This document shows positions 32,866 to 53,910 of a stretch of 64,000 nt of DNA, in pieces; the stretch's first letter is position 1, and the number at the start of each line of letters is the position of its first letter. The notes below the pieces were generated by a model, which worked only from the letters and a program-made list of their open reading frames with translations, was not told the DNA's origin and made no database searches. This DNA is from a virus. The DNA lies in IMG/VR virus record IMGVR_UViG_3300035670_013228, positions 113,881 to 177,880 of that record, one strand, 5' to 3'. The position numbers and the translations under genes are program-made.

Positions 32866-34533
32866 TTAACTATTTAAAATGTATGATAATTGTTCTGTTG
32901 GTACTGTTACGCTTGTTAATCCGGGTTTGTTGTTAATAATAAATTCATCTATATATCCAGAATAGTAGTTTAGGTTTTGAAATCTCCAAAATATAGGATA
33001 ATTATATGATAATAAAGTACCATAAGCTTCATTAGCTCCATATCGAGGAGTAATACCAATAACCATTGTGCTATTCTCTGCGGCAAGATTGCTAGATGAT
33101 GATCCTGTTGCTACTTGATTTCCATTTAAGAAAAGTCTAAGAGTATTATTATTTCTAGATACATGTATATGATGCCAAGTATTAGCACTTACCAAGTTGT
33201 TAGCGCTTCGTATAGTAGTATTACCTATAGTAAATGCTACTGATCCATTGTTGGGATTTTGAAATCCGCTCTTAGTACTATATGTTCCACCACCAACTCT
33301 AAGATATGAAGAATAAGCAGTAGTAACAAAATTAGGATTGATTTGCGCAAAATCATTGATAAAAAATATAGGACATTCGCTAACAACTGAAGGTTTGATC
33401 CAAACGCTAATGTTAAAATCACCAGTAATAGATTTAGGATCCATTAGTATTTGTTGATATGAATTGTTTAAATATAATGATGAAGATCCAAACTTTTTAT
33501 CATTAGAAACTACTGTCGTGTTGCTGAATATATATTCGTTTCGTTCTGTTAAATCTTTTTGTCCTCCTCCAACAGTATCTAAAACTTCATTTTCAAAATT
33601 ATTATAGAATAGTATGCTTGGCGTTGGTTCACTTGCAAATTCTGTGTCTGGTGGCGTAAAATTAGAAGTATATTTTGCAATATTATTTGTAAACATTACT
33701 TCATCGCCAAAAAAAGTATTACTACCCGTTACACCCGTAAATAGAGATACATTGCTATAATTTATATTAGATGTTTTTAAATATCCTCTTTGCGTATTTC
33801 TGCCATCTTCAGACCAATTAAGTAAGTTCCTTACGGGGTAATTACTACTTGAAGTATCAATAGAAGTATTAGGAACAAAGTTTAAAATATTAACACCATC
33901 TAAAAATACTCTATAAGTATTATTTTGTTTTACTAATGCGATATGTTGCCAAACATTAGTGTTTAATGCAGAAGATGATTCTGAACTTATATTTGAGGTT
34001 ATATTCAGACTGCTGCCAGGACTGCTAATACTTCTATTAATTCTTAATTTACCATTGCTTCCAAAGTATAAAGCAATATAATTTCCACTACCAAAATCAC
34101 TATCGGCTATAACAAAAATATTTCCAGTACCACCAAGCGCTGTCAGATATATCCAGCCTTCGATTGTAAAGTTGTTATCTCCTATGTTAATAGGTTCACC
34201 ACGCATAAATATACCATCATTGTTTCTATAACTAGAAACATTATTATTACTATAACACGAAGATCCAAACTTAGATCTAGTATTTACAACTGATCCGTCC
34301 CCCGTGGTTCCTGTCTTTGTACTGAATCTTGATGTTGCAAACCAACGTCTTTTATTAACACTATTATAGTATGTTCTTGATCCATTACTTTCTTCAAACT
34401 TTAATAAAAATTCAACAACAGGATCTCCTTCAACAATATCTTGTAATGAACCGGGATATTGACCTTGTATAATAGCATCATTAATAGCATTTAACGAATA
34501 AATACCATTAGCACCTTTTTTTGAACTATTCAT
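32866..34533 (-). CDS. tandem LamG/concanavalin-A-like domain virion protein
   Basis: Two repeats with KFGSS, FTIEGWIY / FNISVWIK, WQHIALVK / WHHIHVSR, FLDG / FLNG and GYIDEF. Confidence 0.9.
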   Translation of the reverse strand: MNSSKKGANGIYSLNAINDAIIQGQYPGSLQDIVEGDPVVEFLLKFEESNGSRTYYNSVNKRRWFATSRFSTKTGTTGDGSVVNTRSKFGSSCYSNNNVSSYRNNDGIFMRGEPINIGDNNFTIEGWIYLTALGGTGNIFVIADSDFGSGNYIALYFGSNGKLRINRSISSPGSSLNITSNISSESSSALNTNVWQHIALVKQNNTYRVFLDGVNILNFVPNTSIDTSSSNYPVRNLLNWSEDGRNTQRGYLKTSNINYSNVSLFTGVTGSNTFFGDEVMFTNNIAKYTSNFTPPDTEFASEPTPSILFYNNFENEVLDTVGGGQKDLTERNEYIFSNTTVVSNDKKFGSSSLYLNNSYQQILMDPKSITGDFNISVWIKPSVVSECPIFFINDFAQINPNFVTTAYSSYLRVGGGTYSTKSGFQNPNNGSVAFTIGNTTIRSANNLVSANTWHHIHVSRNNNTLRLFLNGNQVATGSSSSNLAAENSTMVIGITPRYGANEAYGTLLSYNYPIFWRFQNLNYYSGYIDEFIINNKPGLTSVTVPTEQLSYILNS

Positions 34534-34905: not shown

Positions 34906-36000
34906 TTATAATAGATCGTATTCTAAATCGTATATGTCATTATTAATACTATCAATGTAGGTCAAATCTAAAATTTTGTAAACATAACTAAATGTTGCTG
35001 GCGGTAATGTTGTTGTTGTTGTTGTTGTTGGTTCTGGAGTTGTGGTGGTAGTTGTTGGCGCTGGCGTGGTTGTGGTCGAAACTACCGTTGCTGATTCTTG
35101 AGCTATTTGATTTGCTATATTAGATATTGTTGTGGTTTTGTTTTCTGTTACACTTCCAATATTTTCTAATATTTTTTTTGTAAAAACTATAGAAGAAAAT
35201 GTATTACCTTTTGAGAATTCTTCTATATCTTTATTTATTATTGACGTTGTATTATTAGAAATAATATCAATTTCATTTGTTTGTTCTTGTGTTAATTGTT
35301 GATTGTTATTTAAGTTAAGAACTTGTTTTTTAGACTCAACTAAGATAGTATTAGTTTTTTGATTAAAAAATTCTGTTGGATTTAATCTTATAGTATTATC
35401 TTCTATAATTGTTTTAGCAATTGATGAAAAAACATTACTTTCGGTAGTTTCTAATGCTGTTTTTGCAATCAAAACAACAGAAGATAATTTTCTATTTGTT
35501 TCGTATGCATTATTTATTGTATTAGAAAACGTAAATTCATCGTTTCCATTTGGATTAATATAATTTGTTAGATCAAATCCAAAAAGATTTTGAATACGAT
35601 TAATAGGATTATTTTCTCCAAGTCTAACAATTTCATTATAAATAGTAGAAATAGCAGAAAATATAATTCTATTATTAATTTTGTTTGAATTATAAAGATA
35701 TGTATATCTAAACTCTATGGGTTGATTTGTTTCTGTGTCTATTGATAAATTATTGCTATTAACTACAAAATAATCAGGACTTAATTGTATAATTTGATTA
35801 ATTTCATTTTGTGATAAAATCAAATTACTTCCACTAACGGTTTTACTAAATCCTATTGAATTATTATTTTTTACCATTCCAAATGTAAAATTAGAAATCG
35901 TGGATCCTTCAATCAAAATAGATGGAGTACTAGTCCTTCTAACTTTAGCAACTCCGTTTACCATTAATAATTTATTAGTATTAATTTTAAATGATGTCAT
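34906..36000 (-). CDS. probable structural protein with Thr/Pro-rich linker
   Basis: N-terminal FKINTNKL...NGVAKVR module; TTTTPAPTTTTTTPEPTTTTTTT near the C-terminus. Confidence 0.6.
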   Translation of the reverse strand: MTSFKINTNKLLMVNGVAKVRRTSTPSILIEGSTISNFTFGMVKNNNSIGFSKTVSGSNLILSQNEINQIIQLSPDYFVVNSNNLSIDTETNQPIEFRYTYLYNSNKINNRIIFSAISTIYNEIVRLGENNPINRIQNLFGFDLTNYINPNGNDEFTFSNTINNAYETNRKLSSVVLIAKTALETTESNVFSSIAKTIIEDNTIRLNPTEFFNQKTNTILVESKKQVLNLNNNQQLTQEQTNEIDIISNNTTSIINKDIEEFSKGNTFSSIVFTKKILENIGSVTENKTTTISNIANQIAQESATVVSTTTTPAPTTTTTTPEPTTTTTTTLPPATFSYVYKILDLTYIDSINNDIYDLEYDLL

Positions 36001-36200
36001 AATTTAAATCTTAGAGAGTTACTCAACCTGTTATGCTGTATTATACACTACTACATTTGTATATTTTTTTAATTTTCATTGTACCGTTATTATTGAATAT
36101 TTTATTAACTTTGACCTTAAACTTTGCTAATATTTCTGATATAGTTGTAAACCATCAGTTACAATACAATTATGTGACATGATTTAAATCTTAGAGAGTT
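35995..36200. repeat. 26-bp direct repeat pair (35995-36020 and 36175-36200), 2 mismatches, 180 bp apart
   Basis: tgtcataatttaaatcttagagagtt versus tgacatgatttaaatcttagagagtt. Confidence 0.9.
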
Positions 36201-36394
36201 CCTGAGCCTATTGTATAGTATGTTATATCATCAAATCGTTCATCATATTTATTTTCAATATCAGCAATAACTGGTTTATTATAAACGTTAGAATTTTGAT
36301 ATTGAAAACTATTTGTAAAAGGAGACGGGGCCACTACAAGAGTGCCATGTTTGATAGATGTGCCGCTTTTTGCTAAAGTTATATCGTTTGCCAT
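36191..36394 (-). CDS. hypothetical 67-aa protein
   Basis: AAAGGG RBS; compact ORF in the structural block. Confidence 0.55.
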   Translation of the reverse strand: MANDITLAKSGTSIKHGTLVVAPSPFTNSFQYQNSNVYNKPVIADIENKYDERFDDITYYTIGSGTL

Positions 36395-36406: not shown

Positions 36407-37375
36407 CTAACAAGAATAATTTGAAGCTACTGGACCGTTACCATTAGAATCTGCTGCTACACAAGTTGGATCTGTATCGCTTTGAGTAGCATAAACCCAG
36501 TATCCAGCATTAGTTCCGCCGCCTTTGTAATATGCCGCCTTGTGCCATTCATTTTCGGTGGGTAAATGATATTTAGCATCATTATTACTGGGTACAGCAT
36601 TTCCAGTAGTTCTTCCGTCTGGAATAGTGTATGCTCCACTTTCGGTACTGCCATTGCCTTTTCCGTTATGTAGCCAGTTGCAATATCGGGCACAGTCAAA
36701 CCAACTTACATAAGTTACTGGCTTGTTTCCCATGTTATTTTTAACACTATAAGTGTAACTACCACTAGAGCCGCTTCTAGTTATTCCGCCCCTAGCATGG
36801 ATATTCATATCGGTATTGTATAAATTGTAAGTGTCTATTGCTGCTACAGCATTTAAAAATTCAACATATTCACAGTTGGTAACAAGATATTGAGCTATAA
36901 CATACTCATAATTCACACCGCCATACCCAGTGCTGTGATTAGAGTTGTTAATATCATTAACAAGGGCAAAGTGTGGTAGATTTAAAGGATTAAGGGTAAC
37001 AAAACGACTTGATAGACGAAAACCGAGGCTGTCGTACTCGGCCGACGGGGCGAACGTGCTCCTGCTGGAGGACGACAAGTAGTACGCGATGTTGATCCAG
37101 GAGCCGCCCCGAAGCCCACGAGATGAACCTGTTGTATTATTTAAATCATTCCACTCATAAACTTGTCCACTTTGATCATATGTTCCATAAGCAGATGGTC
37201 CTCCATTAGAGCCAACCGTGGTAACATTACCGTCTTGGCCGTCCCAATCAGCACAAGAGTTAAAATTAGCACTATTAGGACCAGCACTAAAAGGCCCGGT
37301 AACATATGCTTGTTTTCTAACTTTAGCTACTCCATTTTGATATTTTAATTTGTTAGTATTAATTTTGAATAACAT
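36407..37375 (-). CDS. FGE-sulfatase (C-type-lectin-fold) domain protein, circularly permuted; putative DGR target
   Basis: GQVYEW, RGGSW and GFRL come before VTNCEYVEFLN, PVTYVSWFDCARYCNW and LPTENEWHKAA. Confidence 0.88.
   Translation of the reverse strand: MLFKINTNKLKYQNGVAKVRKQAYVTGPFSAGPNSANFNSCADWDGQDGNVTTVGSNGGPSAYGTYDQSGQVYEWNDLNNTTGSSRGLRGGSWINIAYYLSSSSRSTFAPSAEYDSLGFRLSSRFVTLNPLNLPHFALVNDINNSNHSTGYGGVNYEYVIAQYLVTNCEYVEFLNAVAAIDTYNLYNTDMNIHARGGITRSGSSGSYTYSVKNNMGNKPVTYVSWFDCARYCNWLHNGKGNGSTESGAYTIPDGRTTGNAVPSNNDAKYHLPTENEWHKAAYYKGGGTNAGYWVYATQSDTDPTCVAADSNGNGPVASNYSC
37016..37120 (-). other. DGR variable-repeat-like segment
   Basis: 65 G/C in 100 nt (37021-37120) versus about 35-38% in the flanks. 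29 consecutive codons end in G/C, with NNC codons at the expected variable positions. Confidence 0.75.
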
Positions 37376-50287: not shown

Positions 50288-51292
50288 TTAGTCCAGTATA
50301 CTGGCCGCTATCAAACAACCTTTGGCTACTGCATGTAAAGGATCTTTTGAATGCGTAACACTATCTATAGGTAATGGAAAATTATTTTCTAACAATTTTT
50401 CATGTAATTTTTCAATATAACCCTGTGCTTGAGATGTACCTCCAGCAACAACTATTTTAATTGGATTTTTAAACTTAGGTAAAGATTTATGATTTAATAA
50501 AGCTACAGATAATTGTTTTGCTGTATACTCTATTAATCTTTCATAGTACGATGAAACCGCACTCAACACAGGATTTTCGTTAGGTTCTCCTACTTTAAAA
50601 TTTCCTTCTTCTTTCTCGACTTGAACAACACTGTCCGGTTCACCAGTTGCAATAGCACTCATACGGTCTATCCAATCGCCTGACTTAGTTGTACTAAAAA
50701 CAACCGTTGGCTCTCCGTTTAACATAACACAAACATTTGTCATTCCCGCCCCACAACTTACGCCTATTCCCGTATAGTCACACTCTTCTAGTTCAGCATA
50801 ACATAACGCTTCGGCCTCATTCACTGATCGTGCATCATAACCAACTTCTGACAATATTGTTTTGACTACATCTTCATGATATCCAACGTCAAAATCATCG
50901 TCTTCTTGATCGACAGGCTGTGCAGGGACGCAGAACACTATTTTTTCATTTTCTTCTTTTGATTGTCCTACTACTTCTTTTAAAATATATGCTAGAATTC
51001 TTTTTGCATCTTTTTCTTTAACCGATACTACTCCTCTAAACATCGGTCTCCGCGCTGTTTCATTTCTTTCTACTGCTTTTTCGATAGCGTCTTTTCCTAA
51101 TATAATAAAAGATCCGTCGCTATCTTTAATAAAGATCTTACCCTTTAGACCTTTTTCTATCATTTTATTAGCTACTGGCGTCGATGGTTTTATCACATAA
51201 AAAGCATCTCTAAAATCCTTGAAAGATATACCTTCATTATTTTGACTAGCCATAACTATATAAGAAGTACCAACGTCAAGACCCTTACTCAT
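50288..51292 (-). CDS. actin-fold ATPase (MreB/FtsA/ParM-like)
   Basis: Phosphate-1 GLDVGTS, NEAEA, phosphate-2 SCGAGMTN, adenosine motif VAGGTS, and AVAKG. Confidence 0.85.
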   Translation of the reverse strand: MSKGLDVGTSYIVMASQNNEGISFKDFRDAFYVIKPSTPVANKMIEKGLKGKIFIKDSDGSFIILGKDAIEKAVERNETARRPMFRGVVSVKEKDAKRILAYILKEVVGQSKEENEKIVFCVPAQPVDQEDDDFDVGYHEDVVKTILSEVGYDARSVNEAEALCYAELEECDYTGIGVSCGAGMTNVCVMLNGEPTVVFSTTKSGDWIDRMSAIATGEPDSVVQVEKEEGNFKVGEPNENPVLSAVSSYYERLIEYTAKQLSVALLNHKSLPKFKNPIKIVVAGGTSQAQGYIEKLHEKLLENNFPLPIDSVTHSKDPLHAVAKGCLIAASILD

Positions 51293-51633: not shown

Positions 51634-52908
51634 TTATATTAGTATCTCTTTGATTATATTTCCATTATCAATAATTTTAACAGGTCTATTTCCTGGAGCT
51701 ATTAGATGTTTATTATGATCAATGCCTAATAGATTATATAGTGTGGCGCCCCAGTCCTCTACGCCCACCGGATCGTCCTGTGGTTCGCTTGCTGTGTCGT
51801 TGCTGGAGCCGTATACCAGCCCTTTTTTAATTCCTCCGCCTGCCATGACTATAGAAAAAACACGCGGCCAATGATCGCGCCCAGCGGTTGGATTTATTTT
51901 TGGAGTACGACCAAATTCTGTGGCAACACAAACCAGCGTTGAATCTAATAGACCTTTTTCATCTAGATCATTTATTAGTGCAGAAAAAGCTTTGTCGAAA
52001 GATGGCAACTGACTACCTATATTTAGTGCTATATTATCGTGATGATCCCATCCGCCATAAGTTACGTTCACGAATCTGACCCCGGCTTCTACCAATCTTC
52101 TGCTTAGTAGTAATCTCATTCCAGCAGCAGTTTTACCATAAATTTCTTTGGTCTTATCGTCTTCTTTGTTAATATCGAATGCTTGTATAGCCTGAGACGA
52201 ATTCATAATATCATAAGCATTTTGATAAAAAGAATTCATAGAATCCAAAGAGTCCGACTTTTGCCTAACATTGAACTCTTTGTTGACTATTTCTAGCATC
52301 GCTTTTCTTTTATCAAATCTATTTATAGATATTCCATCTGGTAGTGTTAAATCTCTAACTTTAAAGTTTGGATCTTCTGGATTTCCACCAAGACTAAATG
52401 ATGAATAACTGTGACTAAGATATCCGGCACCAGCAAATTCGTTGGGTACATTAGGTACTGTTATATATGGAGGTAAATTATTCCTGACTCCTAATTGTTG
52501 ACTGACTACTGATCCTAAACTCGGATACTGAATGGCTGGACTAGGACGATATCCAGTAAACATATTATTAGTTCCACGCTCATGTGCTGTTTCACTATGA
52601 GTCATGGATCTGATAATGCTAATTTTGTTCGCTATTTTTGCAGTTTCTGTTAGGTATTGACTAAAAAATATTCCAGGAATACTGGTTGATATACTATTCA
52701 AAGGACCCCTATAATCAACCGGACTATTAGGTTTTGGATCAAAGGTTTCTTGATGAGCATATCCGCCCGGTAGATAAATATAAATCACTGACTGTGCTTT
52801 TGCTTCCTTCACAGAAGGTTCTTCTGCTCTTAATTTTAGGTAGTCTCCAAGATTTAATCCTAGATATCCTAAAACACCTGTGTTGATAAAGCCTCTTCTG
52901 TTAAACAT
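51634..52908 (-). CDS. DUF1501-family protein with twin-arginine signal
   Basis: MFNRRGFI, YLPGG..HQETFDPKP, H+RG, RRLVEAGVRFV, GWDHH, TEFGRTP.IN...GRDHWP. Start reassigned to 52908. Confidence 0.92.
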   Translation of the reverse strand: MFNRRGFINTGVLGYLGLNLGDYLKLRAEEPSVKEAKAQSVIYIYLPGGYAHQETFDPKPNSPVDYRGPLNSISTSIPGIFFSQYLTETAKIANKISIIRSMTHSETAHERGTNNMFTGYRPSPAIQYPSLGSVVSQQLGVRNNLPPYITVPNVPNEFAGAGYLSHSYSSFSLGGNPEDPNFKVRDLTLPDGISINRFDKRKAMLEIVNKEFNVRQKSDSLDSMNSFYQNAYDIMNSSQAIQAFDINKEDDKTKEIYGKTAAGMRLLLSRRLVEAGVRFVNVTYGGWDHHDNIALNIGSQLPSFDKAFSALINDLDEKGLLDSTLVCVATEFGRTPKINPTAGRDHWPRVFSIVMAGGGIKKGLVYGSSNDTASEPQDDPVGVEDWGATLYNLLGIDHNKHLIAPGNRPVKIIDNGNIIKEILI

Positions 52909-52947
52909 AAAACATCCTTTTCTGGTTATATTATACACTATTATAGC

Positions 52948-53010: not shown

Positions 53011-53910
53011 TTAGTTAGTATAGTTTCCTATCACTCTGCCCTTTTGGGTTCGTGATATAAACTTTTTTCTAACTAAATACGGCTCTATACTATTTTCAAT
53101 AGTTTCTACAGCAATACCAGTAAGAGAAGATATCGCTTTTAAGCCTAATGGATTACCCTTGCTACTTAATAGTAAATTCAAATACATTCTGTCATAAGCA
53201 TCCAATCCGTCTTTATCAATACCTTGAATACTAAAAATCTCATCTATAGATTCTGTAGAATTTGGATGACAGGTCTTGTAGTTTTTATACCACTGTAATC
53301 TAGAGTTTAGAATTCTAGGAGTTCCTTTGCTTCTTTTAGCGATCTCAACAAGATCAGTCTCATCAATAGAAATAGAGAGTTTATCACAGTTCGATCTTGC
53401 TAGTTTAGCTAAATCAGTATCGTTATAAAAACTAAGATGTTCTTTGATACTGAATCTATCATAAAATGGTTGACTTAAACTACCACCACTAGTTGTTGCT
53501 CCTACCAAAGTAAAAGCTGGAAGATCAATAGTTTCTGGTTTTTTCTCTAGAGTAATAGTTAATACAAAGTCTTCCATAACAGGATACAAAAATTCTTCAA
53601 CAAGTTTTGGTAGCCTGTGAATTTCATCAATAAATAGAACTGATCGTGGTGCAATTCCCATAAGATATGGAATAATATTTTTAACACTTCTGAGATTTGC
53701 CGCGTTGGTTGTGTACAGATTCACGTTCAATTCGTTGGCGATAGCACTCGCTATGGTAGTTTTGCCAAGGCCCGGTGGCCCATCTATTAAAGTATGTGGC
53801 ATCACGGTTGATGTTTTTAAACAGCCCGTCACGCTGACTTTTAGCCTGTTAATCACATCATCTTGCCCAAGAATTTCGCTAAATTTAGTTGGCCTTATAC
53901 CTTTAGACAT
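53011..53910 (-). CDS. ruvB: Holliday junction branch-migration ATPase RuvB
   Basis: IRPTKFSEILGQ, GPPGLGKTT, FIDEIHRL, GATT, DRF, RSKGTPR, EPYL and RTQKGR. Confidence 0.97.
   Translation of the reverse strand: MSKGIRPTKFSEILGQDDVINRLKVSVTGCLKTSTVMPHTLIDGPPGLGKTTIASAIANELNVNLYTTNAANLRSVKNIIPYLMGIAPRSVLFIDEIHRLPKLVEEFLYPVMEDFVLTITLEKKPETIDLPAFTLVGATTSGGSLSQPFYDRFSIKEHLSFYNDTDLAKLARSNCDKLSISIDETDLVEIAKRSKGTPRILNSRLQWYKNYKTCHPNSTESIDEIFSIQGIDKDGLDAYDRMYLNLLLSSKGNPLGLKAISSLTGIAVETIENSIEPYLVRKKFISRTQKGRVIGNYTN

Follow-up and report, generated by a model that had tools for sequence, protein, structure and literature searches.

A GC-rich variable repeat in the lectin gene of an AT-rich phage matches a DGR template carried by Planctomycetota

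How does a single gene of an AT-rich phage come to hold a short GC-rich patch that departs from the composition of the gene around it, and does the source of this patch lie in the phage at all? The stretch of DNA analysed here, referred to throughout as the window, is the final 64 kb of a 177,880-bp virus record (IMGVR_UViG_3300035670_013228; 33% GC, CheckV 100%). A first-pass annotation, made from the letters of the window, had read the patch as the variable repeat (VR) of a diversity-generating retroelement (DGR), had noted neither a reverse transcriptase (RT) nor a template repeat (TR) in the window, and had placed both remotely, in the rest of the phage genome or in the host. DGRs are generally viewed as self-contained cassettes, and surveys require RT, TR and VR to lie close together. 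The coordinates of the features discussed below are collected in Table 1.

Table 1. Features of the phage locus and of the template-bearing contig; positions are those of the window unless a contig is named
Feature	Position	Strand	Description
Target gene	36407-37375	minus	322 aa; FGE-sulfatase / C-type-lectin-fold protein, circularly permuted
Shared N-terminal ~28 residues	37291-37375	minus	From the translations, common to the neighbouring gene at 34906-36000; direct repeat of 56 nt, 80% identity
VR	37008-37129	minus	122 nt; gapless alignment to TR at L087:1689-1810 / L090:895-1016
Mutable core, codons 92-117	37025-37102	minus	NNC codons at TR AAC positions, alternating with A-free scaffold codons
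3' boundary, putatively IMH-like	37006-37024	minus	TR homology stops ~8-10 nt beyond the last variable codon
5' homology arm	37112-37129	minus	TR-identical from codon 85 on; codons 83-84 differ at third positions only
DUF1501 gene	51634-52938	minus	PF07394, E 9e-111, full-length
bAvd gene (contig L087)	118-570		First in the order bAvd, RT, TR
RT gene (contig L087)	570-~1600		Second in that order
TR (contig L087)	1689-1810		Third in that order

The 35-codon GC-rich patch described by the first-pass annotation in an AT-rich gene was recovered as codons 86-120 of the target gene, which encode exactly the peptide that it quoted. Its statement that codons 4-32 of the 35 all end in G or C, and that none of the 35 ends in A, was likewise borne out, these being codons 89-117 of the gene (37025-37111). 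Third positions in this run are 66% C and 34% G with no A or T, compared to 27% A, 17% C, 7% G and 49% T in the rest of the gene (GC3 0.24), and the patch is 66% GC compared to approximately 38% in the remainder of the gene. As a control, runs were counted in every open frame of at least 100 aa across the 177,880-bp genome (63,780 codons, GC3 0.21); the 29-codon run of G/C-ending codons is the longest in the genome, the runner-up reaching 11 codons, and the chance of a 29-codon run at a given place is approximately 1e-20 at a GC3 of 0.21. An assembly artefact was ruled out, as the identical patch is present in independent JGI and Logan assemblies and equivalent patches are present in approximately 15 other AT-rich viral contigs from different studies. 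The other GC-rich islands of the genome were rejected as TR candidates, since they are collagen-like or Gly/Ala-rich coding runs.

The target protein is matched by the FGE-sulfatase profile PF03781 with an E value of 7.9e-21 (75.3 bits against the curated Pfam cut-off of 23.3). The matches follow a non-canonical N-to-C order, with profile positions 156-253 encountered first along the ORF and 36-134 second, such that the C-terminal third of the canonical domain, including the VR, occupies residues ~30-123 and the N-terminal part occupies residues ~135-318. The host homologues described below have the canonical domain order, opposite to that of the phage protein, and the VR aligns to the canonical RGG..W...GFR segment of the FGE fold. 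An AlphaFold2 model of the 322-aa protein built from 64 sequences depicts a single compact domain (pLDDT 91, pTM 0.90), and this confident prediction suggests that the permuted chain folds as one domain; an earlier AlphaFold model from 19 sequences was unusable (pLDDT 40). Searching with the confident model, Foldseek returned no significant structural match (best E 0.04), the top partial matches, none of them significant, being FGE paralogues and Treponema TvpA (E 0.46), which is attributed to the use of an order-dependent search on a permuted domain. BLAST searches with the target protein and its 15-kb context against 50,697 phage records yielded no match. Relatives of the target protein are encoded on 22 viral contigs, and many homologues are full-length with the same permuted order. 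To our knowledge, DGR targets of the FGE fold are binding proteins, not enzymes.

Another viral record (IMGVR_UViG_3300034106_006066; L016 / L063) contains a 9.2-kb ORF with several FGE-type units in tandem, one of which has a GC-rich VR while the others have decayed patches. Tandem FGE arrays, through duplication and then truncation, could be a candidate source of the circular permutation.

The surroundings of the target gene give an indication of its role. The neighbouring gene at 32866-34533 encodes a 555-aa Laminin-G protein that matches baseplate and virion-structural PHROGs, and this neighbour, together with the N-terminus that the target shares with a second neighbour (Table 1), makes it plausible that the target protein is a virion adhesin. 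The shared N-terminal residues, as compared in translation, may represent one docking peptide used with exchangeable distal modules. The gene that shares them, at 34906-36000, terminates in a long Thr/Pro run. Two upstream regions near the minus-strand genes at 34906-36000, 36191-36394 and 36407-37375 are also repeated (47 nt, 79%). In two runs, a 197-nt contig joins 37374 to 36357 via 37 other letters at a depth near that of the main contig; as this contig skips the whole lectin gene, it points to a co-occurring relative without the lectin gene at that place.

The first-pass report that RT and TR are missing from the window was found to apply to the whole 177,880-bp genome. An exhaustive ungapped scan of both strands for a TR, with mismatches allowed at candidate A positions, recovered only the VR itself, each scaffold motif is single-copy in the genome, and searches of the genome for RT and Avd using RVT_1, the donor RT and bAvd were all negative. 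No RT was found in nine other VR-carrying viral records, three of which are rated 100% complete, or in a tenth (G004) in which the patch is only partly GC-rich, and the related viral records have a single copy of the scaffold pattern where the pattern applies. A scaffold-only pattern search of IMG/VR yielded VRs and chance matches only, with no TR. With no RT, Avd or TR detected, the phage locus is a DGR target and not a complete DGR. The phage genome also contains no member of the tyrosine integrase or serine recombinase families; the database label of 'provirus' is thus unsupported by either, and a lytic lifestyle is likelier.

A complete DGR might nonetheless have been missed, either in cis or travelling with the phage, if it resided in unassembled phage DNA, in a satellite or in a second phage. 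Assemblies do break at a repeat array of 45-50% GC at the left end of the genome, and one database entry lists a 189,401-bp contig, both of which count towards this explanation. However, only the repeat array with small ORFs was found beyond the left genome end, the three other records rated complete have no RT, the IMG/VR search gave no TR with this scaffold, and the TR family that does fit, described below, sits among housekeeping genes of a bacterial chromosome. On this evidence an overlooked cassette is very unlikely. The array itself consists of degenerate repeats with small ORFs at genome positions 1-1250, outside the window (L028, L030, L032), extends at least 1.8 kb past the record, where several assemblies break, and is adjoined by a GIY-YIG/HNH homing-endonuclease-like gene.

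Exact searches for a TR initially failed, because the TR string predicted in the first-pass annotation, while close, was wrong at two codons; all-AAC guesses at the template, with one codon wrong, had no match in viral, metagenome or genome collections. A per-column analysis of the VRs was used to define the truly variable positions and, from these, a 21-nt search pattern, which matched 17 metagenome contigs and one GTDB genome contig. Eleven of these matches are an invariant TR copy with 11-13 AAC codons in DNA of 63-68% GC, and the 11 TR carriers include VGYR01000422.1, a contig of a Planctomycetota MAG. On the donor contigs, the TR lies just 3' of a bAvd-RT pair (PF22296, E 3e-22; PF00078, E 1e-22), with the RT directly 5' of the TR in L087 and L113, and full target(VR)-avd-RT-TR cassettes are present in L081, L082 and L102. 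Of the two remote locations that had been offered for the TR and RT, the phage genome was therefore negative and GC-rich Planctomycetota contigs were positive, the adenine-variant copy that had been called for being found on L087 and L090 beside bAvd and a DGR-type RT (Table 1).

The targets in these host cassettes are 50-66% identical to the phage protein, are approximately 65% GC throughout, and end in a C-terminal VR followed by a PEP-CTERM-like tail. In a relative genome, a cassette with a close variant of the TR resides within a 79.7-kb contig, where its neighbours include transketolase, a sugar-isomerase-like gene, LptF/G, PP2C and an AMP-binding enzyme; these housekeeping genes indicate that the cassette is chromosomal and not part of a prophage. 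Relatives of the RT were detected in 11 of 201 sampled genomes of the order to which the TR-bearing MAG belongs. The samples that yielded the TR contigs, mostly from one lake, are not those that yielded the phage. In some donor contigs the RT frame runs through the TR (L087:570-1955, L114-L120) and is called as a 461-aa RT with an Asn-rich tail, and identical RT-TR segments are followed by PIN, AbiEii or LssY_C genes depending on the contig. An Asn-rich TR-like translation on a 189,203-bp contig (P0127, 253 aa) belongs to a related but distinct TR family.

Comparison of the window VR to this template shows that the differences concentrate at template adenines. Over the 122-nt tract, 17 of 32 adenines differ compared to 5 of 90 other sites, four of those five being at the edges, and over the 96-nt core the counts are 17 of 30 adenine sites and 1 of 66 others (p 6e-10), in agreement with the original reading of the patch as a DGR-style VR. 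When six equal-length viral VRs were pooled, 94 of 180 adenine sites differed from the TR in comparison to 15 of 396 others (p 4e-41), and this pooled density of 52% agrees with the density of adenine changes of roughly 50% reported for active DGRs (bioRxiv 10.1101/2024.11.15.621889). The lone internal non-adenine exception in the window VR is codon 98, which is TAC. Eleven TR copies have TTC at this site and two TR-bearing proteins have Ser, seen at the protein level only, for which the codon is probably TCC judging by the viral VRs, where TTC, TCC or TAC occurs. A TR allele with TAC was sought among the RT-TR fusion proteins, which gave only Phe or Ser alleles, and among the TR alleles found none matches the window VR at every non-adenine site, indicating that the exact donor allele is unsampled.

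The edges of the tract were also compared. The 5' limit of the TR was set from host TR/VR pairs in L081, L082 and L102, and the third-position-only differences at codons 83-84 are the expectation for a cDNA crossover inside the 5' arm. At the 3' boundary, viral and host VRs have AGT where the TRs have AGC, and the window has two substitutions off the consensus, both of which are also present in L026 and L014; the segment may act as an IMH-like boundary element. A search for a hairpin or cruciform downstream of the VR found that 141 nt fold no better than shuffles. A downstream hairpin is not universal among DGRs.

These comparisons bear directly on whether any template is needed. Without any templating, selection acting on codon usage, on RNA structure or on the amino acids encoded could in principle generate a patch of unusual composition, and amino-acid content does explain the collagen-like and Gly/Ala-rich islands elsewhere in the genome. 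In this patch, however, the excess is at synonymous third positions, no stable fold was found nearby, and the sites that vary track the adenines of a template outside the phage, with the pooled significance given above. The TR match effectively refutes an untemplated origin, to which we assign a negligible probability.

The viral VRs were also compared with one another. In a codon alignment of 15 viral VRs, the A-free scaffold codons (CGG GGC GGC, TTG TCG TCC TCC and GGT TTT CGT, for example) are identical, and variation falls on positions 1 and 2 of NNC codons. The window gene and its homologue L026 (87% amino acid identity) differ at 1 of 29 third positions in the VR and at 52 of 265 elsewhere, and the corresponding counts for L027 (80% amino acid identity) are 0 of 29 and 76 of 265; in both comparisons about one quarter of the VR bases differ, and nearly all of these differences change an amino acid. 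The homologues therefore display the excess of non-synonymous variation confined to NNC codons that had been anticipated, with frozen third positions. Frozen third positions together with changed residues, as seen in these alignments, are the reverse of ordinary divergence and are what repeated copying from a fixed template would predict.

Further comparisons concern the course of this copying. The viral VRs vary synonymously at their 5' end (CTT-CGG, CTG-CGG and CTC-CGC), in parallel with three TR alleles. Two proteins that are 93% identical, P0038 and P0262, differ at 11 of 21 consecutive residues in the 3' portion of the VR and are identical in its 5' third, and a non-adenine deviation in one is at the TR state in the other; this pattern, read at the protein level, is the expectation for 3'-anchored partial homing with a variable 5' crossover. 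Judged by these alignments, the VR has been rewritten after the viral lineages split. In one public run a contig breaks inside the VR at 37087, which is a hint only, as minor haplotypes are invisible in Logan contigs.

The same comparisons weigh on the explanation that the patch is a fossil VR, captured already diversified and not rewritten since. Such relics do exist: the patch has GC3 of 0.62-0.94 in closer orthologues, against 0.1-0.5 in the 150-nt flanks, and distant paralogues, including some encoded by the same viral genomes, have decayed patches of 0.16-0.39. A fossil would also be consistent with the lack of RT and TR in cis and with several clusters of near-identical viral homologues (90% clusters) in which the VRs are identical within a cluster. 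The decayed patches, however, indicate that the GC-rich state needs upkeep, and in the window gene 29 of 29 VR codons end in G or C although the remainder of the gene is fully AT-shifted. Between lineages, 20-29% of third positions differ elsewhere in the gene but none or one of 29 in the VR, where approximately half of the adenine sites nevertheless differ, and the differences between P0038 and P0262 lie mainly in the 3' part of the VR. We consider an unmaintained relic improbable, if by a shade less so than an overlooked cassette.

Recurrent rewriting could instead result from gene conversion, in which the diversified VR genes of the host serve as donors and no reverse transcription acts on phage DNA. 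Host genomes hold several diversified VR genes at the level of identity to the phage protein given above, some viral genes have host-like codons just upstream of the 5' limit of the TR, and a single sequence would look identical under either process. Conversion between genes would, however, have to account for a GC-rich tract that, in the window, L026 and L027, overruns neither limit of the TR. Homology to the host genes is limited to approximately 20 nt downstream, because those genes continue into a PEP-CTERM-like tail that is absent from the phage, and nucleotide identity outside the VR is low as a result of the 30-point GC gap. In addition, cDNA for exactly this tract is a more direct donor, and gene conversion would still need the same host and its DGR. 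We regard gene conversion as unlikely, while granting it more weight than the other alternatives.

A second link to the same bacteria is found within the window, in a gene of the DUF1501 family (Table 1). Across 421 residues its protein shares 63% identity with a single protein of the TR-bearing MAG, whose other copies reach at most 42%. Copies of the family number 21, 15 and 90 in three genomes of the MAG's order, and the family is present in 1 of 14 control genomes. From these sequence comparisons, the phage DUF1501 gene is considered a host-derived auxiliary gene from a family hugely expanded in Planctomycetota. It is flanked by genes for a Volactin-family actin homologue (PF25216, E 4.5e-64) and a RuvB-like AAA+ ATPase, located at 50288-51292 and 53011-53910 (both minus strand). 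The TR match and the 63%-identical DUF1501 protein together lead us to infer that the TR-bearing Planctomycetota lineage is the host of the phage. The GC content of the phage, 33%, and that of the proposed host, approximately 65%, would then be separated by an unusual gap of 30 points. A similar gap between phage and host is known for phiKZ on Pseudomonas.

Taken as a whole, it is probable that the phage VR is rewritten in trans by a DGR of the host, an activity inferred here from sequence comparison. A broader proposal, in which we place slightly less confidence and which we hold at a little better than even, is that the phage belongs to a group of large, apparently lytic, AT-rich Planctomycetota phages that have lost, or never possessed, a DGR of their own, and in which the host Avd-RT-TR hypermutates a captured, permuted adhesin at each infection. 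If the VR is rewritten in trans, the phage gene would descend from a DGR target of the Planctomycetota host, a PEP-CTERM-type surface lectin with the FGE fold, and after capture it would have undergone circular permutation and drifted in composition to the AT-rich norm everywhere but in the VR, the patch being a live or very recently written DGR VR. The phage would carry the recipient half only, with the donor half (bAvd, RT and the AAC-rich TR) on the host chromosome. During infection, host TR RNA would be reverse-transcribed with random bases placed opposite adenines, and the cDNA would then replace the homologous tract in replicating phage DNA. This replacement would be anchored at the 3' boundary with a variable crossover point toward the 5' end, such that non-adenine positions would be reset to the GC-rich template while the NNC codons of the ligand-binding face would be re-randomised.

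Published experiments bear on the trans step of this proposal. According to PMC5758913, avd, TR and RT supplied on a plasmid can act on a target located elsewhere, and homologous sites throughout the E. coli chromosome are edited by a reconstituted DGR (PMC12875486). These results indicate that action in trans is mechanistically allowed. Remote targets were not expected for phages in a survey, on the grounds that target and cassette would not be inherited together (PMC5758913). Among the papers searchable here, none was found to describe a host cassette acting on the VR of a phage.

If rewriting by the host is correct, this would be the first natural DGR to act across replicons and across organisms, and accelerated evolution of this kind would be open to parasitism and would escape present-day searches for DGRs. 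Isolated GC-rich patches in AT-rich phage genes would also have an explanation, and VR-TR matches would offer a new sequence-based means of linking uncultured phages to hosts, here providing a testable Planctomycetota host assignment for widespread uncultured phages of freshwater and the subsurface. It would also raise the question of who gains when a host's diversifier also diversifies the adhesin of its predator. The contrast between a frozen template and a drifted gene may, in addition, serve as a natural clock for the time since the VR was written.

Finally, the locus can be set beside the known systems. In the BPP-1 DGR (mtd-avd-TR-brt), as in the window phage, a phage gene of the C-type-lectin fold is diversified at NNC codons derived from TR AAC codons, with adenine-specific changes at about half of the sites and with a fixed 3' boundary and a variable 5' crossover, both putative in the window phage. 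In BPP-1, however, avd, TR and RT lie beside the target on the phage, whereas the window phage has the VR only; BPP-1 needs a downstream hairpin, for which no counterpart was found in the window phage (z -0.17 relative to shuffles in the fold described above); and the VR of the window phage, unlike that of BPP-1, is internal, because the domain is permuted. The cellular DGRs with remote targets, in the Treponema denticola TvpA family and in Legionella (PMC5758913), similarly have one TR/RT serving distant VRs and targets of the FGE-type lectin fold, but those targets reside in the same genome, whereas here the two parts are on different replicons of different organisms separated by the 30-point GC gap. 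The Planctomycetota cassettes (L081, L082, L087, L102/L113) share with the phage the TR family, the scaffold codons and targets of 50-66% identity, and differ from it in their canonical domain order, their C-terminal VR with a PEP-CTERM-like tail, and a cassette in cis. The E. coli trans systems (PMC12875486, and the plasmid-borne avd-TR-brt cited in PMC5758913) are laboratory constructs, unlike a natural phage; as described there, a target needs homology and boundary elements but not linkage to the RT, and replication favours editing.
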